This document shows positions 1,798 through 49,967 of a stretch of 64,000 nucleotides of DNA, in pieces (the stretch's first letter is position 1; the number at the start of each line of letters is the position of its first letter). Source of the stretch: Candidatus Omnitrophota bacterium (GTDB lineage Bacteria; Omnitrophota; Gorgyraeia; Zapsychrales; JANLHA01). Below the pieces are notes generated by a model. The model was not told the DNA's origin, made no database searches, and was given only the letters and a program-made list of their open reading frames with translations. The DNA lies in assembly GCA_023247795.1 (NCBI GenBank), contig JAHFFT010000001.1, positions 2,868 through 66,867 on the forward strand, in the 5' to 3' direction. Position numbers and translations under genes: made by a program.

Positions 1798-1842
1798 TGA
1801 GAATTGGTAAAGATAAAAAGCACAAAAAAGGAGAATTCGCTC

Positions 1843-2436
1843 ATGAAAAGAATGTCTCGATTTGCACAACTTGTCGTCGTTGGGTTCTTGAGTCTGCTGG
1901 CAAACCCCTGCTGGGCGGCCAGTTATTCACTTGATCAAGCGCACAGCTCCATCGGTTTTTCCATTAAGCATCTCATGGTCAGCACCATCCGCGGGAGTTT
2001 TACTGACGCATCGGGTACAATTGAGTTTGATCCGACCGCGCTCGAAACTTTTAAGGCCTCGGTCACAATTCAAGCGACCAGCATTGACACCAACAATGAA
2101 AAACGGGACAACCATTTGCGTTCCGCGGATTTTTTCGACGTGGCCAACCATCCCGCGATCACTTTTACGGGGAAATCGCTAAAGAAAAACGGTGACTCTT
2201 ATCTGATCGTTGGTGATTTGACTCTCCTCAATGTCACGAAAGAAATCTCCATTCCCTGCAGCATTCAAGGCCCGATCAAAATGCCGTCGGGCGGACAAGC
2301 CATCGGCATCTCCGGACAGACCACCATCAACCGCAAAGATTTTGGCATGACCTGGAACAAACCCATGGACCAAGGTGGATTGATGGTTGGCGAAGACGTC
2401 GCAATTGATGTCAACATCGAGGCGCATCAGAAATGA
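1843..2436 (+). CDS. yceI: YceI family periplasmic protein (polyisoprenoid-binding fold)
   Basis: Start chosen at MKRMSRF... because AAGGAG lies 9 nt upstream, not at the ORF-track start 1804. Signal peptide (LLANPCWAAS). SLDQAHSSIGFSIKHLMVSTIRGSF matches the YceI-like domain signature (D..HS...F.v.H...s.v.G.F). Confidence 0.8.
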   Translation: MKRMSRFAQLVVVGFLSLLANPCWAASYSLDQAHSSIGFSIKHLMVSTIRGSFTDASGTIEFDPTALETFKASVTIQATSIDTNNEKRDNHLRSADFFDVANHPAITFTGKSLKKNGDSYLIVGDLTLLNVTKEISIPCSIQGPIKMPSGGQAIGISGQTTINRKDFGMTWNKPMDQGGLMVGEDVAIDVNIEAHQK

Positions 2437-2448
2437 ACCTCGGTTAAA

Positions 2449-2976
2449 TCAGCTGCTCAATAGCCTTTTATAAATTCGATAATCCTGGTCATCAAAACAA
2501 CAGAAAATAACTTTTTCAATTGCGGATACGCGGGAAAGGAACTCTTTAACGGTGGCGACTGCTATCTGACCTGCTTTTTCTTTTGGAAAAAGGTAAACTC
2601 CGGTGCTGATGCAGGGAAAGGCCATTGATCGAATCTTATTTTCTTCGGCAAGCAAGAGCGACCGCTGATAACATCTTCTTAAAAATTCTGCTTCGCGATG
2701 CTGCCCGCCCTTCCAAACAGGCCCAACGGTATGAATCACATATTTTGCAGATAAACGATACCCTTTCGTTATCTTCGCCTCTCCCGTCTGACATCCACCG
2801 AGTGTACGGCACTCTGCAAGAAGCTGGGGGCCGGCGGCCCGATGGATCGCCCCATCAACGCCTCCCCCGCCGAGCAGTGAAGTGTTTGCGGCATTGACAA
2901 TCGCGTCAACCGACAATCGGGTGATGTCTGCGCAGACAGCTTCGCTTTGATTCATCGACTCCATGATAACCGTCAT
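2449..2976 (-). CDS. Macro domain protein (MacroD/YmdB-type O-acetyl-ADP-ribose deacetylase or ADP-ribosyl hydrolase)
   Basis: [36 protein letters not shown] is the canonical MacroD N-terminal motif. The start is probably MTVIMESM (2976) or MESM (2964); the ORF track extends to 3009. Convergent with yceI. Confidence 0.8.
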
Positions 2977-3075
2977 TCCCAATGAAAAAAAATCCTCGGA
3001 ACCGGACAAAAACTCCCCTCCCAGACTCTTTATTAAACAGATTCAATTTATCCTTTATTTTCAGACGAGTAGGAA

Positions 3076-3870
3076 CTATATCATTCTCTTTCTTACCAGC
3101 TCCATGATTTGAATGATCGCTTCTTGGGCATTGTCATAGATCACCAAATCCGCATAAATGTCATAAGGAGTTGCCATCAGATTGATGATCAAAACTTTGG
3201 CCCCCCGCCGTTTGGCCTCGATCACCAAATAGGCGGCCGGCTGGACTAAAAGGGACGCCCCAATGACGATAAAAAGATCGCTTTGCATGGTAGCCTGCAG
3301 GGATCGCAGAGAAGACTCCAAAGGCATGGGTTGTCCAAAGGCAATGGTGTTTGATTTTAAAATACCCCCGCACAAATCACAATAAGGAACCTGGATTCCC
3401 CCTCCTTTAATCCGCTGATAGATATGATCTCGAGAGAACCGGGCATAACAATGCAAACAACTGACCGAAAATATACTGCCATGGATTTCGATCACTTTTT
3501 CTTCTGACGATTGCGCCCTTTGATGAAGGCGATCGACATTTTGGGTGATCACCGCCAACAATTTCCCTTTATGTTCTAATTCCGAATAGGCATAATGAAC
3601 CTCATTCGGTTGTACCCGCAGCACCAATTCATAAAATTGCTGTTCCATTTCCCAAAAGATCTTTCGTGACCTTTCACTGTCAATGAATTGCTGATAAAGA
3701 AAGTCCTTAGGATCATATTTGGTCCAATAACTGTGTCCGATCCCTCGAAAATCAGGTACACCCGAATCCGTGCATGCCCCCGCACCAGTAAAGCCGACGA
3801 TCTTCTGTGAACCTAAAATCAACGACGCGGCACGTTCAATTTTTTCCTTTTTCTTTCGCGTTGAAAACAT
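3076..3870 (-). CDS. cobB: NAD-dependent protein deacylase, Sir2 family (canonical sirtuin with a Zn-ribbon)
   Basis: GFTGAGACTDSGVPDFRG (NAD pocket), ITQNVDRLHQRA, IEIHGS (catalytic His) and two CxxC pairs (CLHC...CDLCGG) give the classical sirtuin architecture. The start overlaps the stop of the upstream permease. Confidence 0.85.
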   Translation of the reverse strand: MFSTRKKKEKIERAASLILGSQKIVGFTGAGACTDSGVPDFRGIGHSYWTKYDPKDFLYQQFIDSERSRKIFWEMEQQFYELVLRVQPNEVHYAYSELEHKGKLLAVITQNVDRLHQRAQSSEEKVIEIHGSIFSVSCLHCYARFSRDHIYQRIKGGGIQVPYCDLCGGILKSNTIAFGQPMPLESSLRSLQATMQSDLFIVIGASLLVQPAAYLVIEAKRRGAKVLIINLMATPYDIYADLVIYDNAQEAIIQIMELVRKRMI

Positions 3871-4958
3871 CAGCCTTGTCCAATCAGTTTTTCAAGGTCT
3901 CGCCAATAATGATCAGCAAAAACTTCTCCGCGGTACCACTCCAGACCAAATTCCGGAGAATAGACCAATTCCATGGGAACGGCATAAAATCCATCTTTTC
4001 GCTTTAATCGATTCGACTTAACTAACCAAATGATAAAAATAGTCACGGCATTGAAAGGAATAACAAAAGTTGGGAAAGGAAGATAATGGATTCCCAGATA
4101 GGTCAGAAGAACAGCGCCGAGACACCCCAAGAAGGTCAAGACACAAACATGTTTGTTAATCACAATAAAAATCCCCCCCAAGGCCAAGACAGTGGGAATC
4201 GAATTATAAATGTACAATTCCAGCATTCCAAATTCGTGTACTCCCCCCAGGAAAAAAATCAATATGATATTGATCAAGGTTGCCACGCTGACCACGAAAA
4301 ATGATAGCGAGGAATGGTAAAAAACGGCAATCATAATAATGAAAAAAGCCATCATATGATTAGAAAAGGCTTGCAAGAATATTTTTATGGTCTCCCACGT
4401 CCATTGCTTATTGGATAACGTGATGATACTCGCATTGAAATTCCGAAAATATTCGATCATACGCTCATCGGGGCCGCGCCAACTGCTCGACGGAAAAAAA
4501 TGGTTTGAAAGACTGCTCAGCAACAATAGGAGAAGTAGCGAAGGAATACTAAAGACCGGGAGGTTGGCAATTGTTCGGGCATTGAAATCACTCATCGCCT
4601 TCATCATCACTGAAGAAAGCGCCGCCGCAAAAATGAAAAGCAGAAGCGAGATAAAATTCAAATTGAAAAACCAAGCCCAGGCCACCCCAAGGACAACACC
4701 ATTGAATCCGTAAACCCCCGAGTTGATATGAAAGGGCCGCACTTTCAGATGAATGGCTGTGGCCGTCGACGCCATAACCCCTAAGACCGTCAGAAACCAT
4801 ACCTCCCTCGAAATAACAAAAATGGCGACGGATAAAAGAAAACCGGTGAGTTGATTAGGGCAAATCAGGACTTGCCCATATCCCTTTAAAAGGACCTGTA
4901 AATGTGGAAGGAATTTATCACGGGGAAGAAATTCTCTCCATTCGGTAAGATAATCCAT
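3870..4958 (-). CDS. Polytopic membrane protein, urea transporter (UT, PF03253-like) family, putative
   Basis: About 10 predicted TM segments. The N-terminal LLKGYGQVLICPNQLTGFLLSVAIF resembles the UT-family opening motif (LRG.GQ..FQNN..TGLLFL..IF). The two halves look internally duplicated. Assignment is from memory of the family motif only. Confidence 0.5.
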   Translation of the reverse strand: MDYLTEWREFLPRDKFLPHLQVLLKGYGQVLICPNQLTGFLLSVAIFVISREVWFLTVLGVMASTATAIHLKVRPFHINSGVYGFNGVVLGVAWAWFFNLNFISLLLFIFAAALSSVMMKAMSDFNARTIANLPVFSIPSLLLLLLLSSLSNHFFPSSSWRGPDERMIEYFRNFNASIITLSNKQWTWETIKIFLQAFSNHMMAFFIIMIAVFYHSSLSFFVVSVATLINIILIFFLGGVHEFGMLELYIYNSIPTVLALGGIFIVINKHVCVLTFLGCLGAVLLTYLGIHYLPFPTFVIPFNAVTIFIIWLVKSNRLKRKDGFYAVPMELVYSPEFGLEWYRGEVFADHYWRDLEKLIGQG

Positions 4959-4970
4959 GCGTGGACGATT

Positions 4971-6371
4971 TCATTTTTGCAGTTTCAAACGGTCGGGTAA
5001 CACATCTAGACGACGAAAGTCGGACATGACTTCCGGCATTCGCAAATATTCCGCCTCACCATGATGAACAATGACAACCGCGGGACGCGCATAAATGAAC
5101 TGCATTGATTGGCTCATATTATAAGCGCCGACATTCTTAATGATAAGCTGACTGCCCTTCTGCAACTGTGGTAAGCGCACGCCTAAACGAATCACATCGA
5201 TTTGCATGCACAAGGGGCCATACACATTCACATTATCCAAATGGGGGCCCATGTCCTGGACAGTCATAAATTCATGTTTATACCAATAAGCCGTAACCAA
5301 AATATTAACACCCGCATCAATGATAATCGCCTTTGTTCCATCAGCGAATCGTTTGGTCGCCACAACCGTTGTTATCATCGACACTGCCTCATCTACCAGG
5401 GAACGTCCCGGCTCGAGGATCAAACGGGGTTTGCTCTTAAACTCCTGAACCCGATTGCGCAACGGATAACAGAGGGCTTCCGCATACTGCTCTAAGGTCG
5501 GAATGATCGCGGAACCGGTTAAAAACTGCGAATGGAGAGTATTGCAGGAGGCATAGCCTCCCCCCATATCAAGATACTCAATCTGCACGTCGAATTCCCG
5601 CTCCAATTTTAAAGCAAAATCAATCAACTTATTAACCGCCTGATAATACGCCCCGTGGTCAGAGATGTAAGTCCCGATATGACAATGTAAGCCGTTCAAC
5701 TGCAGACTTCCCGACGAGACAACCCGACGCGCTGCTTCAAAGGCCTGTCCGGCCTCGAGATTAAAACCAAACTTACTCCAAGCCGGATAAGTCACATCAA
5801 CATTGACCCGAATCCCTACCTTCGCGGGATCCTTCTTAGACGGCCAAAGATTTTCAATTTGCTGAATCTCATCAAAAGAATCAATATTTATGATCGACTT
5901 TCCTTTTATGGCTCGCATCAGATCGGCACTTGTTTTATGGACACCATTGAAAACAATTTTTGTCGATGGCATACCTAAGTCTTCGGCCATTTCATATTCC
6001 AAACCCGAAACGACTTCTGCCCAGGCCCCTTCTTGATGCAAAATCGTACAAATACCAGAAAGATAGTTGGTCTTGTAAGAATAGGCAATATAGGTATCGG
6101 AATAAATTTTGCGTAAATTCTTGATAAAATCCCGATATCGCTGCCGAAGATCTTTCTCCGAAACAACATACAAAGGAGAACCATATTTGGCAACGAGTGT
6201 GGAGACATCCACACCGTCGATCTGCTGACAGGGAGTCGCGCTTAATGTTCGACCACGATATTTGTTCGTTGCTGCCAGCGAATGAATCGTGATCAGCGGT
6301 TTTTCGTAGGTGCCTCGGCGAACGCCGGGCGTCACAGTTTGACTTTTGGAATCATGATTTCTATGAATCAT
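4971..6371 (-). CDS. PLP-dependent decarboxylase, fold-type III (diaminopimelate/ornithine/carboxynorspermidine decarboxylase family)
   Basis: YSYKTN (equivalent to the AVKAN PLP-lysine motif), GLHCHIGT, MGGGY, EPGRSLV and CMQID are the hallmark motifs of the DapDC/ODC alanine-racemase-fold decarboxylases. It has an N-terminal extension of about 50 aa. It overlaps the upstream ATP-grasp gene by 11 bp. Confidence 0.8.
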   Translation of the reverse strand: MIHRNHDSKSQTVTPGVRRGTYEKPLITIHSLAATNKYRGRTLSATPCQQIDGVDVSTLVAKYGSPLYVVSEKDLRQRYRDFIKNLRKIYSDTYIAYSYKTNYLSGICTILHQEGAWAEVVSGLEYEMAEDLGMPSTKIVFNGVHKTSADLMRAIKGKSIINIDSFDEIQQIENLWPSKKDPAKVGIRVNVDVTYPAWSKFGFNLEAGQAFEAARRVVSSGSLQLNGLHCHIGTYISDHGAYYQAVNKLIDFALKLEREFDVQIEYLDMGGGYASCNTLHSQFLTGSAIIPTLEQYAEALCYPLRNRVQEFKSKPRLILEPGRSLVDEAVSMITTVVATKRFADGTKAIIIDAGVNILVTAYWYKHEFMTVQDMGPHLDNVNVYGPLCMQIDVIRLGVRLPQLQKGSQLIIKNVGAYNMSQSMQFIYARPAVVIVHHGEAEYLRMPEVMSDFRRLDVLPDRLKLQK

Positions 6372-7419
6372 GAAAGATGAGTTCCTTTGTTGTTGCTAAC
6401 TGACCTAAACGACTGATCTCACACGTCATATCCAGCGAACTTCTTGCAAATAAAATCCCTGGTTTGAAGGGCAATTCAAAATCACCTTTTTTCCCAGAGG
6501 CAATCATAATAGCCGCCTTGGGCATATTACAACCGGCCTTGGCAGCCAACTGAATCCAATTCGGAAAACGCGGCCGGATATCCGTCAAAACATATTGGTT
6601 CGTAGTATGGCTCTTCACAAATTCCAATTCGGCCGGGCCACACCATTGGATTTCTTTTAACACCTTCCTCGCCATATCATCCAAGATCTCATCTTGCGTG
6701 GTCATGCCAATCCACGTTGACCCGTTTCTCGATTTGACAATTTTTTTCATGCCGGCACAAGCAACAACCTGATGCCGACGATTTGTCAGAGCGGCGATGG
6801 AATACTCATCACCACTGATATACTGCTGTAAGACCAAGGGACTTCCCCAACTCTCAAAAAATCGGTTGCTAAAAACACCTGCTTCTTGCGTAGAATAAAC
6901 TAACTGCTGTTCGCCACTGGGACATTTAACGTAAAAAGGCGAATAGAAATTCAGTGCCAAACTGGCTAATTGAGCTTGATCCCACAAAGGCATCGTATAA
7001 GGAACACCGACTTCGATGTTAACGGCCCAATAAGGAATACTTTCGGTCCGTGCTTTTCTTAAACTCGCTTCGCTGGGAATGAGCATTTTTACACCAAGGT
7101 CCCGCAGATCCGGCTCGAGTTTGATCATCGATGGGATTTCAAATTCCAGATTCGGGATAAGAAAATTGTTCTTGGACGTATCAACAATTTCTTTCATCCG
7201 TGATAGGTAACGATCTTCCTCTTCCTGCGGATAAGGAACAACATAAACCGCATCCACAAGTTTATCCAAATAGGCAATGCTGTCCAATAATTCATATACC
7301 AGCGCAATGATTTTGACTTCGAAATCGGCTTCGTTGCGAAGACAGCGAATAACCCCTATTCCGGGAGCTGGATCGGCTCCGGCATTTAAGCCGGTGACAT
7401 AAATATGATACCGTGCCAT
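6361..7419 (-). CDS. ATP-grasp superfamily carboxylate-amine ligase (paralog 1)
   Basis: 352 aa. The N-terminal pre-ATP-grasp region (YHIYVTGLNAGADPAPGIGVIRCL) parallels the paralog (CNVAFTGVDSTENPYPGLSVLRAIK). The central and C-terminal regions have an ATP-grasp layout (PLVLQQYISGDEYSIAAL...ELEFVKSHTTNQYVLTDIRPRFP). Confidence 0.65.
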   Translation of the reverse strand: MARYHIYVTGLNAGADPAPGIGVIRCLRNEADFEVKIIALVYELLDSIAYLDKLVDAVYVVPYPQEEEDRYLSRMKEIVDTSKNNFLIPNLEFEIPSMIKLEPDLRDLGVKMLIPSEASLRKARTESIPYWAVNIEVGVPYTMPLWDQAQLASLALNFYSPFYVKCPSGEQQLVYSTQEAGVFSNRFFESWGSPLVLQQYISGDEYSIAALTNRRHQVVACAGMKKIVKSRNGSTWIGMTTQDEILDDMARKVLKEIQWCGPAELEFVKSHTTNQYVLTDIRPRFPNWIQLAAKAGCNMPKAAIMIASGKKGDFELPFKPGILFARSSLDMTCEISRLGQLATTKELIFHDS

Positions 7420-7429
7420 ATCGACGTTG

Positions 7430-8518
7430 TTATAAAGGTGTCTGTTCGTTACTCGATAACTGGATACTGCGCCAATTGAGCGATCCCTGAAGATTCAGTT
7501 GAACCAAATGATTAAAATCACAAAAGATGTCCTCAAAAACACGGCTGAACATAACACCCTTCTTATACTCCAGTTGCGGCTCTACGCGTTCGCCTAACGC
7601 CAGTTTGAGCGTGAGCAGCGGCAAATTCAAATTGCTTGACATCGTGGTGTATATCCAAGCGGGTAACCGGGCATTGATCTCAATGATAAATTTCTTATTG
7701 AAATACGGATTCTTGATGATTTCGAGTTCCATGGGGCCTTGCCATTGCAACGCCTTAACGACCTTGCTGGCCAATTCATGAAACTCTTCGCCATCAACGG
7801 TCACGCCGGCAAAAGCTTTACCAGAATTTGTGATCCCAATTTTTTTCATCACCACTTTGGCCACGATATCACTGTTCTGGTCGGCAACCAACGCGATATC
7901 ATATTCGTCTCCATCAACACATTCCTGAACAATGAGCGGCAATCCCCATTGATAGGAAAAACGATGAAAAAAAACCTGCGCCTCATCTCGGTAATAAACC
8001 TTCTGTGCGTCAATGATCGAGCCTTTGATCAATAATGGATAATGCAGCTCAACCGAATGTTGATCAATTTCCTGGGGATCGTTGATCACATAACTCTTCG
8101 GATGATCAAATTGATTTTTTTCACAAAATTCCCTTAAAAACGCTTTCGATCGGGCCTTAACTGCCGCTTCCGGCGGAACAAAAGTCTTGATCCCGATATT
8201 CCTCAATTTATCTGCCAAACGGGCATAGGTGGCAATCTCCGAATCTAAACACGGGATCAAAACATCGATTTTGGTTTGGCGATGGATATCCTCGATCCTG
8301 GGAAATAGATAATTCTCCGGTTCGGAAGGGAAGGGGATCTGATAAACTTCATCGATCAGATCATATTTGTAAAGACCGGTCGTTACGCTATCATAAGTAA
8401 AGACAATGATTTTTCCTAGAAACTCGCCGGATTCCTTAATGGCCCGCAGCACGCTCAAACCCGGATAAGGATTCTCCGTCGAGTCTACGCCGGTGAAGGC
8501 CACATTGCAGTCAATCAT
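7430..8518 (-). CDS. ATP-grasp superfamily carboxylate-amine ligase (paralog 2)
   Basis: 362 aa. YPLLIKGS, LIVQECVDGDEYDIALVAD, and MELEIIKNP...FIIEINARLPAWIY (the E-x-N-x-R Mg/ATP motif of ATP-grasp enzymes). It overlaps the PqqD-like gene by 4 bp. Confidence 0.7.
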   Translation of the reverse strand: MIDCNVAFTGVDSTENPYPGLSVLRAIKESGEFLGKIIVFTYDSVTTGLYKYDLIDEVYQIPFPSEPENYLFPRIEDIHRQTKIDVLIPCLDSEIATYARLADKLRNIGIKTFVPPEAAVKARSKAFLREFCEKNQFDHPKSYVINDPQEIDQHSVELHYPLLIKGSIIDAQKVYYRDEAQVFFHRFSYQWGLPLIVQECVDGDEYDIALVADQNSDIVAKVVMKKIGITNSGKAFAGVTVDGEEFHELASKVVKALQWQGPMELEIIKNPYFNKKFIIEINARLPAWIYTTMSSNLNLPLLTLKLALGERVEPQLEYKKGVMFSRVFEDIFCDFNHLVQLNLQGSLNWRSIQLSSNEQTPL

Positions 8519-8889
8519 TGCTTAATTCCAATTTCTAACTCGCGCAGTTGATAAAGCAGATCATGGATATCGGAAACTAAAATTCCTTCACTGACCTCAT
8601 ATTCTTGAGTGAGTTGTTTTGCTAAGTCCTCCAGCGAAAGCCCCTCTTTGATCCTGGCGATAATAAAAGAAGCGGTCGTATTTAAAGCATAGACCCGGCC
8701 TGATTTAGCGTCAAATAAAAACCCATGACCATCTTCCGAGATTTCCGTACTCACGTGCTCCGGGATCGAAATCACATAATTTCCTAAATCCTTAAATTGG
8801 CAATCCTTCTTATTATTTCGATTGCGGAAACGTTCCAGGATTTGATCGATATCCTCGATCTTTCCTTTCCTTTTGATATACAATTTCAT
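8515..8889 (-). CDS. PqqD-family small protein (RiPP recognition element-like peptide chaperone), 124 aa
   Basis: GHGFLFDAKSGRVYALNTTASFIIARIKEGLSLEDLAKQLTQEYEVSEGILVSDIHDLLYQLRELEIGI follows the PqqD/RRE pattern (..l.d...g.yy.LNetaa.IW.ll.G.sl.el...L...Y.v....a..Dv..fl..L...glI). A canonical ACP DSL motif is absent. Confidence 0.55.
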   Translation of the reverse strand: MKLYIKRKGKIEDIDQILERFRNRNNKKDCQFKDLGNYVISIPEHVSTEISEDGHGFLFDAKSGRVYALNTTASFIIARIKEGLSLEDLAKQLTQEYEVSEGILVSDIHDLLYQLRELEIGIKQ

Positions 8890-8895
8890 CGTACC

Positions 8896-11400
8896 TTATG
8901 CCCCTCTATTCAATTCCCCCAAACCGTTTAAGGCTCCCAAATGTCCTGGAACAATTTCCAAGGCTTTCATAAATCTTTGCTTTGCCGCACTTTTATCGCC
9001 CTTCTTCAAATCACACCAACCCAACGCGGTATAAGGATCGGCATAAATATCCTGCTCTTTATGCAGCTCGAGAAGTTGATTAAAATATCCGGCTGCCTTA
9101 TCATAATTTTTAGTGTAAAAGTAACTCCAGCCTAAATTATTCAATACCACACTCCATTTCAACCATCCGTCTTCCTTCTCCGGTTTCTTCGATAAGAGCG
9201 GTTCCAGTCGATCAATCGCCCCCTTATAATCACCCTGGATAAAATAGATCGCTCCTAAACCTAAAGAAGCGCTTTCCGAGGTTGGCTCCTTCGCTAATAC
9301 TTTTGCAAATGATTCGGAAGCCTTCTTATAAATGCCCTGATAATAATAACTCCATCCTAACCGGCTATAAAGATCAAACCAGCCCTTTTCTGCGGCAAGG
9401 ATCTTTTGAAAATCCTCCGTCATTACATAATCCGGATAAATGTCGATGGCTTTCGCAAAGGCTTCTTTAGCAGGATCCAAGTTTTTAACTTGATACTGAC
9501 TTAACCCCAAACCATAATAAGGATCGACCCAATAGGGGTTGATATCAATGGCCATTTGAAAGCTTTCCGCGGCCTTAGCGTAATCTTTGATCTTATAAGA
9601 ACTCCAAGCTAAAGCGGTCAAGGCGGAATAATTTTTTGGGCTTTCTGCCACGGCTTTCTCTAAATATTCTTTAGCGCCGACATAATCTTTCCTTTGAAAT
9701 AAAATATTGCCTAAACCACTCAGGGCATCGAGATTTTTAGGATATTCCGCCAATAATTCTCGGAATTCTTTCTCCGCACTATCCTCTTCCCCTAAACGAT
9801 AGTAACACCAACCGATCCCTCCCCGCATGGCCAAGGCCTTATCTTGCGGAATATTTTTACCAGCATTTTGCAGGTCATATTTAAATTGCTTCAAGGCCGA
9901 AAAATAATCTCCTTGATAATAATAACTCCAGCCCAAATCGGTCCGCCCATATTTGGCTTGATCAACGGCCAGCAAACCATTTAAGGCATCCGCATAGCTT
10001 GGATTGAGAGCGAGCACGGCTTTAAATTCTGATTCCGCATCATCAACCTTTTTCAACATATAATACGACCATGCCAATCCATCATGCGGATCAATCCAAT
10101 TAGGCTGATTCGTAACCGCCTTTTTAAACTCTTGTGCTGCTTCACTGTATTGTCCCAGTTTATAATCCGCCCACGCCAGGCTTGACTGGGCATCGCTTTG
10201 CACTAAATAGCTGGCAATGGTCCCGGGGATTTGGACATATTCGCTCACCGCCGGTAAAGTCGGATTCTCCTTTAACGATTGCTTAAAATATTTTGCAGCA
10301 TCTTCAAATTGACCCAATTTATAAGCGGCATAACCCAAACCCCTTAAGGTTTCGCCATTCTTTCCTAAAACTTTAGAAGCCTCATCAAATTCTTGGGCCG
10401 CGAGTTGAAAATACCCTTGTTGATAATAACTCCATCCAACCACATTATAGAGATCTTGCCAATCCGTCTGAATTTTGAGAACATTCTTAAATTGTTCATC
10501 GGCGACAAAAGGATAAATGTTGATGGCCGTCGTAAAATACTCCTTTGCCTTCGGGAAATCCTTCAAATCAAAATACGTCCAGGCCAAACCTTTATAAGGT
10601 TCAACCAAATAGGGGTTCAATTGTCGGGCCTTCTCAAACTCTGCTTTTGCCCTCTCAAAATCAGATTTGCGATTATAAATCCACCCGATCTTGCTTTGCA
10701 CATCCGGTTGATAAGCTTGAACATCAAGCGCTTTCTGCAAAAAAACCAAGGCCTGATCAAAATCATTCATCTCAAAATACGAAAAACCTATTCCTTTGAT
10801 GGCATCAAAACTATCCTTTTGCAGACTCAACACTTGCTCAAAATTATGAATGGCTTCCTGGTATTGCTTGTTGAAATGATACGACCATGCCAATCCAGTG
10901 TGAACCCTCCACAATTCTATATTCGGTAAACGTCCACTGGTATCAGCAACAATGGCTTCAAAGATAGTAATCGCCTTGCTATAATTCCCGGCATAATAAT
11001 ATTGCCAAGCACGATTAAAAGGGCGATAACGCCAAGCACTCACTTCTGCCATCCCGTTCAGGGAACCGGGGAAATATGGATAAATTTGTAGACATTTTTT
11101 AAAATTCTCTTCCGCAGTAACAAATTCGCCTTTTTGTAAATAATTCCATCCTAACCCATCATAGGGATCACACCAATCCGTGTGCTCCTGAACTTCTTTC
11201 TGAAATACCCCAATCGCTTGATCATATTGTTTATCATAATAAAGATCCCAAGCCTCTTGGGAAACGGTGGGCTCTTCCTTTTTATTGTTTTCCTCAGCCA
11301 CGGCCTTTTGAACATTGATGAAAACATTGATCAAAACAAAGATCGTCACAACGACAAAACATAACATCGTTTTACAGCTCATTAATTTTTTTAAACGCAT
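8896..11400 (-). CDS. Large TPR-repeat protein (834 aa) with an N-terminal signal/anchor
   Basis: Hydrophobic N-terminus (TMLCFVVVTIFVLINVFINV), then more than 20 TPR-like units with recurring GW(S/C)YY/GLG/A...NP motifs. The plus-strand ORFs inside it are antisense artefacts. Confidence 0.8.
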   Translation of the reverse strand: MRLKKLMSCKTMLCFVVVTIFVLINVFINVQKAVAEENNKKEEPTVSQEAWDLYYDKQYDQAIGVFQKEVQEHTDWCDPYDGLGWNYLQKGEFVTAEENFKKCLQIYPYFPGSLNGMAEVSAWRYRPFNRAWQYYYAGNYSKAITIFEAIVADTSGRLPNIELWRVHTGLAWSYHFNKQYQEAIHNFEQVLSLQKDSFDAIKGIGFSYFEMNDFDQALVFLQKALDVQAYQPDVQSKIGWIYNRKSDFERAKAEFEKARQLNPYLVEPYKGLAWTYFDLKDFPKAKEYFTTAINIYPFVADEQFKNVLKIQTDWQDLYNVVGWSYYQQGYFQLAAQEFDEASKVLGKNGETLRGLGYAAYKLGQFEDAAKYFKQSLKENPTLPAVSEYVQIPGTIASYLVQSDAQSSLAWADYKLGQYSEAAQEFKKAVTNQPNWIDPHDGLAWSYYMLKKVDDAESEFKAVLALNPSYADALNGLLAVDQAKYGRTDLGWSYYYQGDYFSALKQFKYDLQNAGKNIPQDKALAMRGGIGWCYYRLGEEDSAEKEFRELLAEYPKNLDALSGLGNILFQRKDYVGAKEYLEKAVAESPKNYSALTALAWSSYKIKDYAKAAESFQMAIDINPYWVDPYYGLGLSQYQVKNLDPAKEAFAKAIDIYPDYVMTEDFQKILAAEKGWFDLYSRLGWSYYYQGIYKKASESFAKVLAKEPTSESASLGLGAIYFIQGDYKGAIDRLEPLLSKKPEKEDGWLKWSVVLNNLGWSYFYTKNYDKAAGYFNQLLELHKEQDIYADPYTALGWCDLKKGDKSAAKQRFMKALEIVPGHLGALNGLGELNRGA

Positions 11401-11489
11401 ACTCTCCTCCTATGTTAATCTAAATCTGTTAAATAACTGCTCAAAATAGTTATCCTTGACAACAATGATCGTACGGGAAGTTTTTGTTC

Positions 11490-12611
11490 TTATAAAGAAT
11501 TGGTCTTTTGATCGACTTGCTCAAGTCCGGTGAGAGAACTCTTATACGAAGGAGTAAGAGCTAAGGCTTTATTGAACATCACTCGAGCAGCTTTCATACG
11601 TCTACGACTCGTTTTATTTTTTCCTTTGGCGGTCTTATCATTATCCCAGTAAAGATACGACCAACCGATCTTATCGTAAATTTCAGCATTTCTTTCATAC
11701 TTCAAAGCCTGTTTATAAATCCCTATGGCTTCTTGATATCGCTTTAAAGAAAACAAGCAATCTGCCCATTTGATTCGGGCGTCATTCCATTGCGGCTTCA
11801 GCCGAGTGGCCATTCGAAACTCTTTTAAGGCCTTTCCAAAATCCTGACGGCTAAAATTAAGATAACCTAATGCCCGATGAGCTTCCGGCTCAGTTTTAAC
11901 ATGCACGCCCCTTTGATATCGCATCCCTTTAACTAAGGCCCGCTGGAGATATTTTTCGGCAATCTCAACTTCTCCCTTTCGAAAATAACACCAACCCAGA
12001 CCTGCATAGGCATCAGAAGAATTAGAATCTATACTCAACGCTTGTTCAAAATAGTTAATGGCTTGGGCCCAATCTGATTTTTTAAAATTTGCCCAACCTC
12101 TCCCGGTATAAGCATCAACGACCTTAGGATCCACTAAAACCAAATCGCCAAACGTTTTGCTGGCACTCTCATAATCACCTTTACCAAAATAGGCCCACCC
12201 TAGCAAAGTCAAGGCCTCTGAACTCAAGGGATTCTGTCTCACTGCTTTCTCAAAATATTCAATGGCTTTCTCGTGATTGTTAACCGATAAATAATACGAC
12301 CCTTCTGAGGCATAACCTTTGCCTCGACGATCTCCGGTGGAAGTAAAAATGGGTTCTTCTCCTACATTAACAACGGTCATCGCCATTTCAACGGGCTTTG
12401 TTCCTATTTCATAAAGTGACTTAAAAAGTTCCGGTACCTGCTTGACATTCGTCATAGACTTCGCAACATCAACCGGTAGCTTCGCGATTCCCACAACCTC
12501 CTCTTTGACCAGTTTCGGCACTTTTTTAACGGTGGCAGCACAGCCGGTCATCATTCCTCCAGCCAGCAGCAGGGTGATGAATTGCAAACATGGGTATGAG
12601 GAAATTTTCAT
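11490..12611 (-). CDS. TPR-repeat lipoprotein
   Basis: Lipobox (LLAGGMMTG-C) after a signal peptide, then about 7 TPR units (LGWAYFGKGDY, RGWANFKKSDW, LGWCYFRKGEV). Confidence 0.75.
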   Translation of the reverse strand: MKISSYPCLQFITLLLAGGMMTGCAATVKKVPKLVKEEVVGIAKLPVDVAKSMTNVKQVPELFKSLYEIGTKPVEMAMTVVNVGEEPIFTSTGDRRGKGYASEGSYYLSVNNHEKAIEYFEKAVRQNPLSSEALTLLGWAYFGKGDYESASKTFGDLVLVDPKVVDAYTGRGWANFKKSDWAQAINYFEQALSIDSNSSDAYAGLGWCYFRKGEVEIAEKYLQRALVKGMRYQRGVHVKTEPEAHRALGYLNFSRQDFGKALKEFRMATRLKPQWNDARIKWADCLFSLKRYQEAIGIYKQALKYERNAEIYDKIGWSYLYWDNDKTAKGKNKTSRRRMKAARVMFNKALALTPSYKSSLTGLEQVDQKTNSL

Positions 12612-12628
12612 CGTAAGCCGTTCCTTCT

Positions 12629-14269
12629 TTAAAACTCGATATCCAAACCAAATTCCACTTGATAGGCGCCATCGGCCTCGCCATCCCGTCGAGGAGTAGG
12701 CGCGAATATGTTATTGGCGGCAGTATCGGCGCGGGTTTCCTTATAATAATCTCCCGGGAAAAAATATCCTGACAAAATACTAAACTTTATGGCTTTGGTG
12801 ATTTGATAACTAGCAAAGACATCCAATTCCTGGCCCAAGTCTTTTGAAAAAGTTTTTAAATTCCCATTGCCATCCAGACCCCATCCCGGTTCTTTTGAAC
12901 GCAAATACCAATAATCCACGCCGATATACCATTTTTCAAGTGGGGTATAATCAAATCCAACGGTCGAAGCAATCAAATTTTCAAACATGAAAGGGTCACC
13001 AAAGGTCCCGGGACGAGCGACGCCAAAATTGACCGCGTATCCGCCTGCCATTGCCACATAAGGACCAAACTGTTTCTGATAATGCGTATCGGTTAAATTG
13101 GTGTTTAATGGGGAAAAAACACTGAAGGCCTCATTTTCATTACTGGTGAGGGTAAGTTCATTATAATTCTGCGCGTTGAATCGGTTACCGGAGGCCATAA
13201 AAAATTTCGTCTTCGGTTTGAACGCCCCCAAATCATAACTGGCATCCGCAACCAAAAGATAACCTTTATGTTCGATATCATTTTGTGCCGTGTTGATGGC
13301 CTTCGCCTTTCCCAAATTTTGGTCCCCTTCAAACCCAAGATTCAGACGGTCAAAATTCAGTTTTAAATAAGCCCCTGGTGTCACAAGATCTTCGTTTTTC
13401 ACACGGGTGCTGAATCGACTTGCACGCGCACCTTCTGGTGTTCGATCCCTCAGCCAGCCGGTATAAAGTTGTAACCGTTGTTTACCCAATTTGAATGTCG
13501 TATCCGCCGTATAAAAGTAAGCATTGGTGTCATTCCAATCATTGACCTTCTCATGATCAATGACTTTTCCTAAATGAATACGATTATTCAGATCTTCTTT
13601 TTCCCAGTGGACATTCCAATCGAGTGATTCATTAACTCCAGAAAGGGTTAGCCCATAATTTTCATATTTTCCACCCAAGGCAATGTTATGACCAAGATCG
13701 CGTCCGTAAGGATACAGACCAAATTTGAAATTGACATCTTTCGTTGAATTCACCGGAACTTCCAGCCAGGTTTCTCTTAATCGAGGATATAAATCTGAGT
13801 TTTGGTACCAATGATACCGTCCAAATAAAGAGTTGATGCCACGGCTCCCATAAAGCGGGGCATCATAATCGGCGCGCCCCCTTCTTTCTACAAAAGAATA
13901 AAACTCAAGGCCGGAAAGATGGCGGAGATCAAAAGTAAAGTCATAAGCTAACCCAAGATAACTGGTCTTATCATTGTTATTCGCTAAATCAAGATCAACC
14001 GTATTGTTCACTAAATTATAAGACGTACGCAGGTGCGCTCCGGAATGAAATTTCCAATTTGATTCATCCAATAAAAAAGGATGTTTCTCAACATCCAAAT
14101 CTTTAACGTCTTTAAAATAACTCTGAGCATATATAGAGGAAGGCAGGGCAAATAAGGAAAGGAAAATAAAAATATTGACGAAAGGCTGAAGGAAAACTTT
14201 TTTACTTTTTTTGTTTTTACAAGTCATTCTCAAAGATTGTTGAGATTCAAATTTTATAACATCTCGCAA
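12629..14269 (-). CDS. Outer-membrane beta-barrel protein (porin/export-channel-like), putative
   Basis: Signal peptide (probable start MTCKNKKSKK...FALPSSIYAQS), alternating amphipathic strands rich in Y/G/N/D, and a C-terminal ...YQVEFGLDIEF ending in Phe, typical of BAM-targeted OMPs. It lies 17 bp upstream of the TPR lipoprotein on the same strand. Confidence 0.55.
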   Translation of the reverse strand: MRDVIKFESQQSLRMTCKNKKSKKVFLQPFVNIFIFLSLFALPSSIYAQSYFKDVKDLDVEKHPFLLDESNWKFHSGAHLRTSYNLVNNTVDLDLANNNDKTSYLGLAYDFTFDLRHLSGLEFYSFVERRGRADYDAPLYGSRGINSLFGRYHWYQNSDLYPRLRETWLEVPVNSTKDVNFKFGLYPYGRDLGHNIALGGKYENYGLTLSGVNESLDWNVHWEKEDLNNRIHLGKVIDHEKVNDWNDTNAYFYTADTTFKLGKQRLQLYTGWLRDRTPEGARASRFSTRVKNEDLVTPGAYLKLNFDRLNLGFEGDQNLGKAKAINTAQNDIEHKGYLLVADASYDLGAFKPKTKFFMASGNRFNAQNYNELTLTSNENEAFSVFSPLNTNLTDTHYQKQFGPYVAMAGGYAVNFGVARPGTFGDPFMFENLIASTVGFDYTPLEKWYIGVDYWYLRSKEPGWGLDGNGNLKTFSKDLGQELDVFASYQITKAIKFSILSGYFFPGDYYKETRADTAANNIFAPTPRRDGEADGAYQVEFGLDIEF

Positions 14270-14430
14270 ACATTTTTTATCCTAAGCATTTTTCGTTTCA
14301 ATTGCAAGTTTTTTTTAAATTTTTTGTGGGACAGGCCAAAAATCCCGGGTATCAGGGATAAAAGATGTTGCTGGTAAAAGTCGTAAATCCTTTTTCTCGT
14401 CGAATGTATTATAAAAATTTTTACTCTCAC

Positions 14431-14516
14431 ATAGCAAACGGATTTGCTATGTCCAAAAAATTTATCCTAGAAGTCGGCTGGAAGAATTCCTCGCAGCTAG
14501 CTGCGAGGAATTCGCT
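14431..14516. repeat. Two strong palindromes in a 408-bp intergenic region: atagcaaacggatttgctat and gaattcctcgcagctagctgcgaggaattc
   Basis: The second is a perfect 14-bp-arm inverted repeat with the CCTCGCAGC..GCTGCGAGG core, also seen at 1772-1797 and 41068-41087. Confidence 0.6.
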
Positions 14517-14606
14517 CGAGTAAAAACTGAAGATCAGAGGTATCGTGGTTTAACAGCAAGGATAAAATTCAATACTTAACTCAAGTCTCATGTCTCATCT
14601 CATATC

Positions 14607-14632
14607 GCAGGTCGCAAGTCATTTGTAACTTG
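14607..14632. repeat. CAAGT/ACTTG hairpin element (gtcgcaagt-catttgta-acttgcgac)
   Basis: Perfect 9-bp stem. Related CAAGT-rich hairpins occur at 22452-22497 and 50067-50097. It lies just 3' of the 14678-15778 gene on the minus strand, so it is a possible terminator. Confidence 0.5.
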
Positions 14633-14677
14633 CGACTTGGTACCTGGGACTTGTTACTTTGTCACTTCGCCGTGATG

Positions 14678-15778
14678 TTAATTGGGTCGCGGACCATCAC
14701 TGCCAAGGCCGCCCGGCTGACCACCAACATGATTGGCGTTATTCAGACCCGCGCCGCCCAGACCAGGTCTTTGCGTACCCTGACTTGATAATACCCCAGG
14801 CTTCGGCATGACAGGACCGACAGGCCGATTGCCATTTAACTCTTGATGGCCGGCTCCTTGCCCTTCCATTTGGGGAGATTGGTCGGACTGCATATTCCGC
14901 ATTTGACCTTGTTCTTCTTGACTATGCTCTTGCATCGCTCCCTTCGGTGCTTCATGTTGTACTTTTATCCCTCGCATTTTCTCATACTCGCTTTTCATTT
15001 GTTCTCGACGATCTTGCTGCTCTTCATGAGACGCTTGCATTTTCTCTTGATGCTGCTCTTTCATTTCCTGCAGCTGTTCATGCTCAGCATCCATCTGCTC
15101 TCGATACTCCTGTTGCTCTTCACGAACCGCTTGCATTTTCTCTTGATGCTGCTCTTTCATTTCCTGCAGCTGTTCATGTTGCGCCTTCATTTCTTCTCGC
15201 TGTTGCTGAAATTGTTCTTTATAAGCCTCTGCGCGTTCCGAATTAGCTAACGGCGGTTTTTGGTTAGGCCCGCTTATCAGTGGTCTATTCATTTCGCCCA
15301 TTGAAGCATTGGGACGAGAACCTTCTTGCTGATCACCCATAGGGCCATTATCACGTTGCCCCATCTGATCAGGTTGATTCATTGGTTGCTGCGAACCTTG
15401 ACGGTCATTATCTGTTCGTGGACCAACCTGAGAATTGCCTTGTTCACCTTGCTGCGCACCCGATTGCGGACGATTTTGTTCTCCACCCATACGATTGCCC
15501 TGAGATCCACCCTGGCCTTGCATTCCCGATCCGTTGGGCCGATCGTTATTCATACCAGGATCTCCTCTTTGGCCTCCTGGACCGCCAGAACCACCAGGTC
15601 CACCTGCTCCGCCTTGACCACCTTGATGTCCAGCGTTCATACCCTGTCCCGGACCGCCATGTCCACCTGGACCTCCAGCTCCCGGACCACCACCCGGCCG
15701 CGGCCCTTGCTGGGCGAAAACCACACCCGAAAGCGCTAAGCAAAAAATTCCAATCAAAGCCATGATTCTCATTTTCAT
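14678..15778 (-). CDS. Secreted low-complexity Gly/Gln/Pro/Met-rich protein with a tandem coiled-coil repeat
   Basis: Signal peptide MKMRIMALIGIFCLALSGVVFAQQ; long GGPG/QGG/MNxxxQ low-complexity tracts. The centre carries two copies of EQLQEMKEQHQEKMQA within 33-aa repeats. The plus-strand ORFs 14843-15250, 15326-15739 and others are antisense artefacts of the repeat. Confidence 0.6.
   Translation of the reverse strand: MKMRIMALIGIFCLALSGVVFAQQGPRPGGGPGAGGPGGHGGPGQGMNAGHQGGQGGAGGPGGSGGPGGQRGDPGMNNDRPNGSGMQGQGGSQGNRMGGEQNRPQSGAQQGEQGNSQVGPRTDNDRQGSQQPMNQPDQMGQRDNGPMGDQQEGSRPNASMGEMNRPLISGPNQKPPLANSERAEAYKEQFQQQREEMKAQHEQLQEMKEQHQEKMQAVREEQQEYREQMDAEHEQLQEMKEQHQEKMQASHEEQQDRREQMKSEYEKMRGIKVQHEAPKGAMQEHSQEEQGQMRNMQSDQSPQMEGQGAGHQELNGNRPVGPVMPKPGVLSSQGTQRPGLGGAGLNNANHVGGQPGGLGSDGPRPN
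15020..15220. repeat. Two tandem copies of a ~99-bp unit inside the Gly/Gln-rich gene
   Basis: Near-identical units gctcttca[tc]ga[ga]c[cg]cttgcattttctcttgatgctgctctttcatttcctgcagctgttcatg... are directly visible in the sequence. Confidence 0.7.
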
Positions 15779-49890: not shown

Positions 49891-49967
49891 TGGTCGGGAA
49901 GGTGGGATTTGAACCCACGACCTCAACGTCCCGAACGTTGCGCGCTAGCCAGCTGCGCTACTCCCCG
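49891..49967 (-). tRNA. tRNA-Pro (anticodon CGG), CCA encoded
   Basis: The minus strand reads CGGGGAG-TA-GCGC-AGCTGGCTA-GCGC-G-CAACG-TTCGGGA-CGTTG-AGGTC-GTGGG-TTCAAAT-CCCAC-CTTCCCG-A-CCA. A 7-bp acceptor stem (one G-U), D, anticodon and T arms fold. The GTTCAAATCC T-loop is present. Coordinates are good to about 1 nt. Confidence 0.85.

Follow-up and report, generated by a model that had tools for sequence, protein, structure and literature searches.

A conserved, so far uncharacterised nine-gene block linking a PqqD/ATP-grasp/decarboxylase core to a UT-family membrane protein, a sirtuin and an AlgE-like outer membrane barrel

The locus described here is part of a 64-kb stretch of DNA (the window), in which nearly every gene is located on the minus strand. 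The first-pass annotation had described a co-directional block of ten ORFs. These encode, in order of reading, an outer membrane protein (OMP), a TPR lipoprotein, a larger TPR protein, a PqqD-like RiPP recognition element (RRE), two ATP-grasp proteins (AG1 and AG2), a PLP-dependent decarboxylase, a UT-family membrane protein, a sirtuin (Sir2) and a macro domain protein. All ten minus-strand ORFs were recovered at the same positions and separated by gaps of exactly 17, 89, 6, −4, 10, −11, 12, −1 and 66 bp, and the domain assignments were likewise confirmed (Alginate_exp in the OMP, TPR in two proteins, PqqD, two ATP-grasp, Orn/DAP-type PLP decarboxylase, UT, SIR2 and Macro). Only the OMP and macro ORFs probably have over-extended starts. 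Start and stop codons overlap at the PqqD/AG1, AG2/decarboxylase and UT/Sir2 junctions, and folding of the internal gaps of the block gave no terminator-like structure. Of the junctions in the block, 78% measure 20 bp or less versus 48% elsewhere in the window, and 100% versus 64% do not exceed 100 bp; since co-direction and tight spacing are common throughout the window, they are only weakly above background and prove little, and it is comparative genomics rather than layout which bears the weight of the claim that these genes form a system.

The OMP (12629..14227, minus strand, as are all features below) is predicted to be an outer membrane beta-barrel of the 18-strand type (Pfam Alginate_exp, 27.7 bits), with a signal peptide and with Phe as its last residue. 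Its ORF reaches back to a TTG at 14269, but the alignment with homologs begins at the ATG at 14227, which is the likely startcodon. The AF2 model (pLDDT 82) takes the form of an AlgE-like barrel, in line with the beta-barrel first proposed, with AlgE accounting for all top 15 matches in a Foldseek search of the PDB (E 4e-16 to 4e-13). Orthologs of the OMP are linked to the cassette in 8/9 evaluable loci, and three more distant homologs (35–40% identity) are found in unrelated contexts without the cassette. Always found together with the OMP gene is the gene for the TPR lipoprotein (11490..12611, 373 aa, TPR families), for which a lipobox Cys is present in the window (MTGC) and in four of the five relatives checked (the L084, L090, L091 and L086 counterparts), supporting its assignment as a lipoprotein; by analogy it may have an AlgK-like role. 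The third envelope component is a putative periplasmic scaffold of 834 aa (8896..11400, TPR families, signal peptide), with orthologs in all ten evaluable loci of the subtype defined below, and a homolog encoded between AG1 and AG2 in locus L004. The periplasmic and outer membrane proteins other than the TPR lipoprotein have signal peptides, and the OMP C-terminus is F or Y.

Upstream of the OMP gene, where the gap is 450 bp if translation starts at 14227, the three strong hairpins reported previously (14608-14639, 14484-14513 and 14429-14452, together spanning 14429..14639) are real, with folding z-scores of −3.2 and −5.0; none is followed by a U-run, and the hairpin at 14484-14513 is a perfect 30-nt palindrome which is unique in the window. 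The region had been suggested to hold the promoter, but all three hairpins are located upstream of the promoter-like site that is best conserved (TTGCAA-N17-TAGGAT, 14279..14307). Because of this position and because they directly follow the stopcodon of the upstream 366-aa riboswitch-controlled gene, they are more likely to be 3' structures of that gene than to belong to the promoter, and we infer that they insulate it from the operon. The promoter-like site is preceded by an A-tract, with the OMP ATG approximately 50 nt downstream, and the combination of TTGCAA-N16/17-(T/C)AnnAT and A-tract recurs before the OMP gene of L082 and L084 and is lacking in L090; it is a candidate promoter by consensus match only, which is no proof of function.

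The enzymatic core starts with the PqqD-like RRE (8515..8889, 124 aa, Pfam PqqD E 2.5e-12), which is extended at its N-terminus by about 45 aa and has a stopcodon overlapping the AG1 startcodon by 4 nt. The ATP-grasp ligase AG1 (7430..8518) has an intact catalytic motif set and a confident AF2 model (pLDDT 91.5), to which, among solved folds, the CPS-like and itself uncharacterised 2pn1 comes nearest. As structure and database comparisons gave no close characterised relative, the ligation chemistry can only be guessed from analogous systems. While AG1 retains all invariant ATP-grasp residues, its paralog AG2 (6361..7419, 31% identity to AG1) does not: K234 is gone in all orthologs, N282 is replaced by R/K in L082, L086 and the window protein, and R284 by Q/H in L086 and L017. 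Judged from its sequence, AG2 probably acts as a partner which is specialised or has no catalytic activity, and proteins of about 710 aa with two ATP-grasp units fused in tandem do exist. The PLP-dependent decarboxylase (4971..6371) has the Orn/DAP fold (Pfam) and is FslC-like, as FslC is its best NCBIfam match, albeit below cut-off (258 bits versus 500), and the N-citrylornithine decarboxylase 7kh2 its best match in the PDB (E 2e-66, versus 3e-47 for the best DAP decarboxylase), where BtrK was matched as well. Both FslC and BtrK act on amino acids already ligated via another group. No conserved short ORF which could encode a precursor peptide was found near the cassette, neither in loci of the subtype nor among the 80 loci discussed below, and very short RRE substrates are easily overlooked (PMC13622209).

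The UT-family protein (3870..4958, Pfam UT E 2e-32) is predicted to be an inner membrane protein with the urea transporter fold, although it scores far below the Yut equivalog cut-off (90 versus 275 bits). In the family as a whole, 60/64 UT members are fused to a Peptidase_M23 domain. The window protein is a short form without M23, and its stopcodon overlaps the Sir2 startcodon by 1 nt; such short forms are either followed by Sir2 or fused to it. The two arrangements are mutually exclusive, so that the majority subtype has a UT-fused M23 peptidase where the window subtype has Sir2 as the next gene. To our knowledge UT channels are known for small amides alone, and export of anything larger would go beyond this. 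The sirtuin (3076..3870) is a canonical Zn-ribbon, CobB-like protein and the conserved last gene of the subtype, directly following UT in all ten loci which reach that far, and forming a single protein with it in L088. Catalytic motifs are intact in 9/9 cassette-linked copies, which cluster together in a neighbour-joining tree (without support values), and the 43–49% identity to distant cassette counterparts is no closer than that to many generic CobB-like proteins. Finally, the macro domain protein (2449..2976) is a YmdB-type O-acetyl-ADP-ribose deacetylase (NF001664, 236 bits, cut-off 200), with the ATG at 2976 as the probable start (175 aa), which agrees with a second gene call as well as with the ortholog in L025 and gives a gap of 99 bp to Sir2. 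It adjoins the cassette in two of about nine loci, the window and L025, where it is convergent, and is absent beside the cassette in L082, L084, L086, L088, L091 and L004; it is therefore an optional neighbour and not a core gene.

We expanded the comparison to genomes from many phyla, where the PqqD-like RRE, ATP-grasp, FslC-like decarboxylase and UT-family protein occur together in at least 596 species genomes, and the family forms 501 clusters (50% identity, E ≤ 1e-30). Among 80 loci taken from these matches, PqqD opens the core in 67, PqqD, ATP-grasp and decarboxylase genes are neighbours in 72–77, with the decarboxylase gene coming after the ATP-grasp gene in 72–77, and UT comes next in 64. 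The window subtype, found in about ten independent loci (L082, L084, L090, L091, L025, L086, L088, L017, L004 and L015), adds the second ATP-grasp, which is degenerate, together with large TPR proteins (one or two) and a canonical Sir2, which always directly follows UT, while the TPR lipoprotein and the AlgE-like barrel are usually present. These loci span Omnitrophota-like, Planctomycetia, Nitrospinota and 'Deltaproteobacteria' genomes, and the synteny from OMP/TPR to Sir2 is kept despite unrelated flanking genes, with further links provided by fusions within the family (UT::SIR2 in L088, tandem ATP-grasp proteins, and UT-M23 in the majority subtype). Hence the proposal of a single ten-gene system stands for the nine genes from OMP to Sir2, which recur together, but not for the macro gene. 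The OMP and TPR lipoprotein genes are a separable module, being divergent in L086, on the opposite strand and downstream in L091, and downstream in L088, and therefore a single transcript is no property of the family. Literature searches turned up no papers on the nine-gene system, which is a conserved, so far uncharacterised new variant.

Taking the established gene linkage across phyla, some fusions, the domain identities and the AlgE-like OMP fold as starting point, we infer that the OMP to Sir2 genes probably form one functional system, in which an amide-linked, amine-bearing product is made and exported from the cytoplasm to the outer membrane. The PqqD-like RRE would hold a peptide-like substrate, on which AG1, with the degenerate AG2 as structural partner, could join a carboxylate and an amino acid via an acyl-phosphate, using the side chain of the amino acid and leaving its alpha-amino-acid end free, after which the FslC/BtrK-like decarboxylase would strip the alpha-carboxylate to give a primary amine. 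The sirtuin, which would be docked on the cytoplasmic tail of the UT-like channel (to which it is fused in one relative), may cleave an N-acyl-lysine-type amide and thus release or mature the product, a position that would be taken by the UT-fused M23 domain in most other family members. The UT-like channel would pass the product across the inner membrane, and the 834-aa scaffold, TPR lipoprotein and AlgE-like barrel would take it across the periplasm and outer membrane, while the macro protein, as facultative add-on, could hydrolyse the O-acyl-ADP-ribose made by the sirtuin.

The same genes could also encode a small-molecule pathway for a polyamine-like or siderophore-like N-acyl-diamine. Two small acids or amino acids would be joined by the ATP-grasp and their product trimmed by the decarboxylase as in NIS-siderophore routes, UT and OMP would export it, and PqqD would be an accessory subunit without peptide substrate. 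This fits with the lack of a detected precursor peptide, the similarity of the decarboxylase to FslC of rhizoferrin biosynthesis, the small amides known for the UT fold and the resemblance of the ATP-grasp fold to L-amino-acid ligases such as RizA and 3vot, but we consider it unlikely, as PqqD-type domains are known to bind peptides and the core invariably opens with the PqqD gene, which is coupled in translation to that of the ligase, the channel is always tied to a peptidase (M23) or lysine deacylase (Sir2), the block has neither TonB receptor nor NIS synthetase, and a very short RRE substrate may have escaped detection. Less probable still is that the product is attached to peptidoglycan or an outer membrane component (e.g. 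as a diamine-type decoration) instead of being secreted. M23 domains are mostly peptidoglycan peptidases, ATP-grasp ligases such as D-aspartate ligase decorate peptidoglycan precursors in other bacteria, and the TPR and OMP partners are envelope proteins; yet the M23 and Sir2 domains fused after the UT C-terminus are predicted to be cytoplasmic, as no further hydrophobic segment follows and Sir2 requires NAD+, the block is devoid of Mur- and Fem-type genes, and the AlgE-like pore suggests passage across the outer membrane.

It is very improbable that the porin and UT channel instead import urea or a small amide for cytoplasmic enzymes: passive urea uptake is known for the UT family, and the three more distant OMP homologs stand alone like ordinary porins, but the block contains no urease or amidase, the UT score is far under the urea transporter cut-off, a ligase that consumes ATP and comes with an RRE is a mark of biosynthesis rather than catabolism, and an AlgE-like barrel combined with large TPR scaffolds in the periplasm is what export machines typically have. 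We give equally little credit to the idea that these genes are neighbours by chance in a genome which is compact and reads from one strand, with only the four-gene core as a real unit, OMP and TPR as generic envelope genes and Sir2/macro as a housekeeping CobB/YmdB pair. The co-directional, tightly packed genes of the window, the non-conserved macro gene and the OMP homologs found elsewhere would agree with it; for OMP to Sir2 it is largely refuted by the linkage kept with unrelated flanks in four groups of genomes, the UT::SIR2 fusion and the TPR gene embedded in the enzyme operon of another locus.

Several known systems resemble parts of the block. Like butirosin BtrI/BtrJ/BtrK, it combines an ATP-grasp ligase with a DAP-decarboxylase-fold PLP enzyme, and homology between BtrK and the window decarboxylase is detectable. 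The butirosin ligase and decarboxylase act on carrier-tethered glutamate, with decarboxylation only after ligation, and the ligase may act both before and after decarboxylation. The block differs in having a PqqD-like RRE instead of an acyl-carrier protein with phosphopantetheine, and a dedicated UT/TPR/OMP export set and sirtuin but no aminoglycoside genes. It shares the ligate-then-decarboxylate logic of NIS-siderophore pathways (FslA/FslC for rhizoferrin, SbnH-type), although its ligase is an ATP-grasp rather than an IucA/IucC synthetase and there is no TonB-dependent receptor. As in RRE-dependent RiPP pathways (lasso B1/B2/C/D, PQQ PqqD/PqqE), the RRE is a discrete PqqD-type protein and is translationally coupled to an enzyme which forms amides at the expense of ATP, with peptidase and exporter within one cluster in the majority subtype, but without a detectable precursor gene, and in literature searches the combination of CPS-like ATP-grasp, PLP decarboxylase, sirtuin and UT channel matched no described RiPP class. 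The envelope part mirrors AlgK/AlgE exopolysaccharide secretion (also PelB, BcsC and PgaA) in its AlgE-like barrel, TPR lipoprotein and further periplasmic TPR repeats, whereas it lacks a glycosyltransferase/synthase and c-di-GMP receptor protein, has a UT-fold protein as inner membrane part, and the OMP is only about 12% identical to AlgE. The tie between channel and cleaving enzyme, UT-M23 or UT/Sir2, recalls the PCAT-type bacteriocin ABC transporters, except that the channel is not an ABC transporter and the cleaver is an M23 metallopeptidase or NAD-dependent sirtuin rather than a C39 protease. Unlike in SirTM-macro operons, the sirtuin is Zn-ribbon CobB-like and not class M, without GcvH-L/LplA2 partners. 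It does lie beside a YmdB-type O-acetyl-ADP-ribose deacetylase in the window, a biochemically coherent combination as in the CobB and YmdB pair, but conservation of the system does not extend to the macro gene, and the conserved partner of the sirtuin is the UT protein.

The genes from the OMP to Sir2 are a real, conserved nine-gene system, as is clear from related loci (designated L0xx) of the same subtype, which is defined by two ATP-grasp genes and a short UT gene followed by Sir2. These loci have AG1 (first ATP-grasp) identities to the window of 58-65% (L025, L082, L084, L090 and L091), 43% (L086), 44% (L088), 40% (L004, Planctomycetia), 39% (L017) and 38% (L015, a truncated locus from Nitrospinota). 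Sir2 directly follows the short UT gene in all ten evaluable loci, a homolog of the large TPR protein is present in 10/10 and a homolog of the AlgE-like OMP in 8/9, while the flanking genes vary by locus (IS110 and gcvT; PDH E1 and smpB; NAD synthase; tRNA synthetases). In L004 a large TPR gene is located between the two ATP-grasp genes AG1 and AG2. The first-pass annotation had described all ten genes as one envelope-associated system, to be abandoned if synteny with the enzymatic core was absent in related genomes. The OMP, TPR and Sir2 genes are kept beside the cassette (PqqD, ATP-grasp and decarboxylase, with or without UT), whereas the macro gene is not. The claim thus holds from the OMP to Sir2, based on synteny, a UT::SIR2 fusion and the TPR gene inserted between AG1 and AG2, and has to be given up for macro. 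We consider it very probable that the nine remaining genes form one functional system.

The UT protein matches Pfam UT over the full domain (E 2e-32) and stays well below the urea-transporter equivalog (TIGR03441, 90.5 bits vs a cut-off of 274.6). In L088 (L088:13568-15433) UT and Sir2 are a single 621-aa protein, in which a UT domain is joined to a complete SIR2 domain by a linker matching the C-terminal tail of the window UT protein; two database proteins, P0120 and P0123, look like pieces of this fusion type. To our knowledge, fusions to M23 or Sir2 such as those carried by UT family members here have not been described for urea transporters. The sirtuin motifs GAGxS..SGxPDFR, TQNVD, HG and CxxC...CxxC (catalytic His, NAD-binding and Zn ribbon) are found in all cassette copies, and the cassette-linked sirtuins form one group in a neighbour-joining tree calculated without support values; the window sirtuin scores below the CobB equivalogs (NF040867, 217 bits vs 320; NF001753, 215 vs 243). 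The macro protein is of the YmdB type and passes the cut-off for O-acetyl-ADP-ribose deacetylase. Its homolog adjoins the cassette in only two of ~9 loci, the window and L025 (where it is convergent), and is absent from L082, L084, L086, L088, L091 and L004, making macro an occasional neighbour of the system. Other genes found directly after Sir2 are an aldo-keto reductase with a few-base overlap (L084:15569-16483 and L091:15524-16486), and in L086 an HGSNAT_cat membrane acyltransferase follows Sir2 (L086:15413-16504); they are possibly specific to their lineages and involved in tailoring.

The ten minus-strand ORFs and their nine distances (17, 89, 6, -4, 10, -11, 12, -1 and 66 bp) were recovered exactly as first annotated, with the OMP and macro genes probably called too early. 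Homologs of the OMP align from an ATG at 14227, and for macro an ATG at 2976 fits both the L025 ortholog and a gene call of 175 aa from an independent contig; with these two starts, the gap upstream of the OMP becomes 450 bp, and Sir2 and macro are 99 bp apart. Since the minus strand holds almost every gene of the 64-kb window, co-direction is uninformative here. Junctions of ≤20 bp make up 78% in the block vs 48% elsewhere in the window, and those of ≤100 bp 100% vs 64%; the block layout by itself is weak evidence for an operon. Almost all window genes of at least 150 aa are on the minus strand, with many start/stop overlaps, and the compact genome in the window fits Omnitrophota. The window further contains a tRNA-Pro(CGG) gene at 49891-49967 (-), a 2093-aa ORF at 16019-22300 (-) without a Pfam family at E ≤ 0.001, and a gene for a YceI-family periplasmic protein at 1804-2436 (+), which is convergent with the macro gene, 12 bp away, and is the downstream limit of the minus-strand run.

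With regard to transcription, the promoter had been expected in the structured gap upstream of the OMP gene. The three hairpins in this gap (14608-14639, 14484-14513 and 14429-14452) are real, with folding z-scores of -3.2 and -5.0, and the second is a perfect 30-nt palindrome that is unique in the window. The hairpins are probably not the promoter, as they lie directly 3' of the stop codon of a gene at 14678-15778 (-), which encodes a secreted 366-aa Gly/Gln/Pro-rich protein with internal repeats and no Pfam match, and as a promoter-like site, TTGCAA-N17-TAGGAT behind an A-tract, is located downstream of them at 14307-14279 (-). An element of this type is also present 5' of the OMP gene in L082 and L084 and was not found in L090 (retention in 3/4 close loci); in L084 the promoter must lie in the OMP-upstream gap, because the upstream gene is divergent. 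Within the block, the gaps of 89 bp and 66/99 bp are unstructured (z +0.4 and +0.9), and predicted intrinsic terminators do not exceed the shuffle expectation, with the sites inside the block falling within coding sequence. From such sequence features, a single transcript from approximately 14272 to Sir2 is plausible. Ahead of the 366-aa gene, the segment 15821-15942 (-) contains a c-di-GMP-I-GGC riboswitch (RF03167, 61.8 bits, E 9e-13, above the gathering score) and then a terminator-like hairpin (15848-15821). The riboswitch was rejected as part of the system, as a search of seven related loci did not recover it and the gene under its control is not conserved either.

Domain identities of the block genes were assigned using Pfam and NCBIfam. 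The PqqD-type recognition element (RRE; Pfam PqqD, E 2.5e-12) adjoins AG1 with a 4-nt overlap, in an order identical in 67 loci, and so stands beside a modifying enzyme as in RRE-dependent RiPP systems. Going by gene-call lengths, PqqD of the two-ATP-grasp subtype (8515-8889 (-) in the window, and in L025, L082, L084, L086, L090 and L091) mostly has a basic N-terminal extension of ~40-45 aa, with a conserved '...L..RFR...' stretch in the alignment of the window and L025; this extension is missing in the 80-86-aa forms elsewhere, with L088 as the exception within the subtype. A role of PqqD as a LysW-like carrier was ruled out, since its C-termini are not conserved. AG1 and AG2 are paralogs with 31% identity. 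The AlphaFold model of AG1 (pLDDT 91.5) is a clear ATP-grasp, with the uncharacterised CPS-like protein 2pn1 as closest solved structure; searches for ATP-grasp function by sequence and fold gave matches only to this type of protein, biotin carboxylases and L-amino-acid ligases, and the closest AG1 relatives (~65% identity) are labelled Candidatus Omnitrophica. AG2 has lost family-invariant positions (K234 in all orthologs, N282 replaced by R or K in three lineages, R284 by Q or H in two), which makes a role as a non-catalytic or specialised partner probable. The top matches of the AG1 profile are database proteins P0270-P0296 (~704-734 aa), which have two ATP-grasp halves and correspond to the neighbouring AG1 and AG2 genes of the window in fused form, as AG1-AG2 or AG2-AG1. 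The decarboxylase is an Orn/DAP-fold PLP enzyme with the N-citrylornithine decarboxylase FslC (7kh2, E 2e-66) as best curated and solved relative, vs only 3e-47 for the best DAP decarboxylase; BtrK was also matched. It scores below the lysA equivalog (TIGR01048, 246 bits vs a cut-off of 298), and is nearer to FslC than to a housekeeping LysA. It is part of the cassette in 72-77 of 80 loci.

The envelope proteins resemble those of alginate export. The OMP belongs to the Alginate_exp family (above the gathering score), and all top 15 PDB matches of its AlphaFold (AF2) model (pLDDT 82) are AlgE; as in alginate-type export, it is an AlgE-fold 18-strand barrel with a partner TPR lipoprotein, the gene of which always adjoins that of the OMP. 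This 373-aa partner has TPR domains and a lipobox Cys (read by eye) that is kept in most orthologs, while the 834-aa TPR protein has a signal peptide. As a pair, the OMP and lipoprotein genes are oriented divergently in L086 and lie downstream in both L088 and L091 (in L091 on the opposite strand), and are thus a module that can be relocated. Three OMP homologs with 35-40% identity are found in unrelated contexts, not beside the cassette.

The nine-gene system, itself uncharacterised, is a variant of a widespread family that is likewise uncharacterised. A scan with one genome per species identified at least 596 loci with AG1 relatives, and the best 80 of these were analysed by tblastn and de novo clustering of neighbours. 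Virtually all of these 80 loci have PqqD (~83 aa), ATP-grasp and decarboxylase next to each other, and a UT-family protein comes next in 64. In 60/64 loci this protein is ~730 aa and fused to Peptidase_M23 and a C-terminal region, and after it come a signal-peptide protein without an assigned family and a ~206-aa TPR protein. This UT-M23 architecture, found in Bacteroidota, Ignavibacteriota, Cloacimonadota, Myxococcota and other phyla, and the short UT with Sir2 are mutually exclusive. The core gene set is present in at least 596 species-level genomes, including Bacteroidota, Ignavibacteriota, Cloacimonadota, Planctomycetota, Myxococcota and Omnitrophota, and has no curated family name; isolates with the cassette include Hymenobacter edaphi and H. 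gummosus. Among 1.84 billion representatives, 501 clusters matched the AG1 profile at E ≤ 1e-30. The C-terminal region of the UT::M23 fusion (e.g. L019:12657-14867 and 59 other loci, such as L003, L009, L045 and L089) is ~230 aa. If this fusion is arranged like UT::SIR2, its M23 domain would be located in the cytoplasm, an unusual place for a family of peptidoglycan peptidases; for both fused domains we infer this placement because Sir2 needs NAD+ and no extra hydrophobic segment follows UT. The secreted c5/c9/c10 proteins encoded after UT-M23 were rejected as homologs of the AlgE-like OMP, as the OMP HMM did not match them, and to see them as barrels would be a guess. Many Bacteroidales loci have a LytTR response regulator and a histidine kinase ahead of the cassette.

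Based on domains and signals, five of the nine gene products are cytoplasmic and one is a polytopic protein of the inner membrane; of the other three, two are periplasmic TPR proteins, one of them lipid-anchored as a lipoprotein, and the third is the barrel in the outer membrane. As the overall explanation, we lean towards a system that makes and exports an amide-linked product. In the specific scheme, which draws on analogy and in which our confidence is moderate to low, the RRE would present a peptide-like substrate, AG1 would make an amide bond leaving an alpha-amino-acid end free, and the FslC/BtrK-like enzyme would decarboxylate this end to an amine, the ligate-then-decarboxylate order of rhizoferrin and butirosin biosynthesis. 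An amide-cleaving enzyme at the cytoplasmic face of the UT-like channel (the sirtuin here, M23 in most loci) would release or mature the product, which may then exit via the UT protein, the TPR scaffold and the AlgE-like pore, while macro, where present, would clear the O-acyl-ADP-ribose of the sirtuin. With the conserved genes and the limits of the set now defined, heterologous expression offers a direct test of the system.

A candidate precursor peptide did not emerge: an all-against-all comparison of ORFs of 18-109 aa in eight subtype loci recovered only PqqD, as did the best 80 loci, and there was no consistent ORF of 8-70 aa with a ribosome binding site upstream of PqqD. Remote, hypervariable or very short precursors are possible, and RRE substrates of ~21 aa have been overlooked before (PMC13622209). 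A far more speculative alternative, which we consider very improbable, is that AG1/AG2 and the decarboxylase act iteratively, adding an acidic or diamino acid, decarboxylating and adding again, so that a linear, unbranched polyamide (a biological 'nylon' or oligo-amine amide) would grow from a lysine in a primer peptide bound by the RRE; the channel-tethered sirtuin would move the chain from lysine to ADP-ribose, macro, where present, would hydrolyse the ester, and the chain would be threaded through the UT-like pore and the AlgK/AlgE-like TPR/barrel. BtrJ/BtrK are an iterative precedent for such a pairing of ATP-grasp and decarboxylase. If true, this would be a polymer secretion machine without a glycosyltransferase, with wholly new roles for a sirtuin and a UT-fold protein.

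Finally, we compared the locus with known systems. RiPP clusters are expected to have a precursor peptide gene, which was not found here, and graspetides (microviridin-type) have precursors with a conserved leader and core, likewise not found, and a different ATP-grasp clade from the window proteins, which match Pfam ATPgrasp_Ter/ATP-grasp_3 and are structurally closest to CPS-like 2pn1 and biotin carboxylases; a graspetide survey does not mention this gene set. Alginate-type secretion includes an Alg8/Alg44-like synthase/glycosyltransferase, whereas no such domain is present in the ten genes or conserved neighbours. With NIS siderophore pathways only the FslC-like decarboxylase is shared, scoring below the family cut-off, while both the IucA/IucC synthetase and the receptor are absent. 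Similarly, the window proteins score under the curated cut-offs for the LysA, Yut and CobB equivalogs, and the SirTM-macro operons combine a class-M sirtuin and a conserved macro gene with GcvH-L and LplA2 partners that are missing from the block, with macro adjacent in only 2/~9 loci. SIR2-type anti-phage defence was also considered and rejected, as PADLOC gave no match for Sir2, macro, ATP-grasp, decarboxylase, UT, PqqD or OMP, and only generic TPR matches. Full-text searches of a literature library found no description of the gene set, and it is not described in the fosfazinomycin preprint or the PEARL paper. The locus belongs to none of the compared families, because each fails a defining feature, and yet it works like several of them. 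It joins parts not known to act together, i.e. a RiPP-type recognition element, a ligate-then-decarboxylate pair, a UT-fold protein always accompanied by an amide-cleaving enzyme (M23 or sirtuin), either carried or recruited, and an alginate-type TPR/barrel exit. Its study could reveal a new class of secreted amide/amine products, a function of the UT fold unrelated to urea and a bacterial sirtuin dedicated to biosynthesis.
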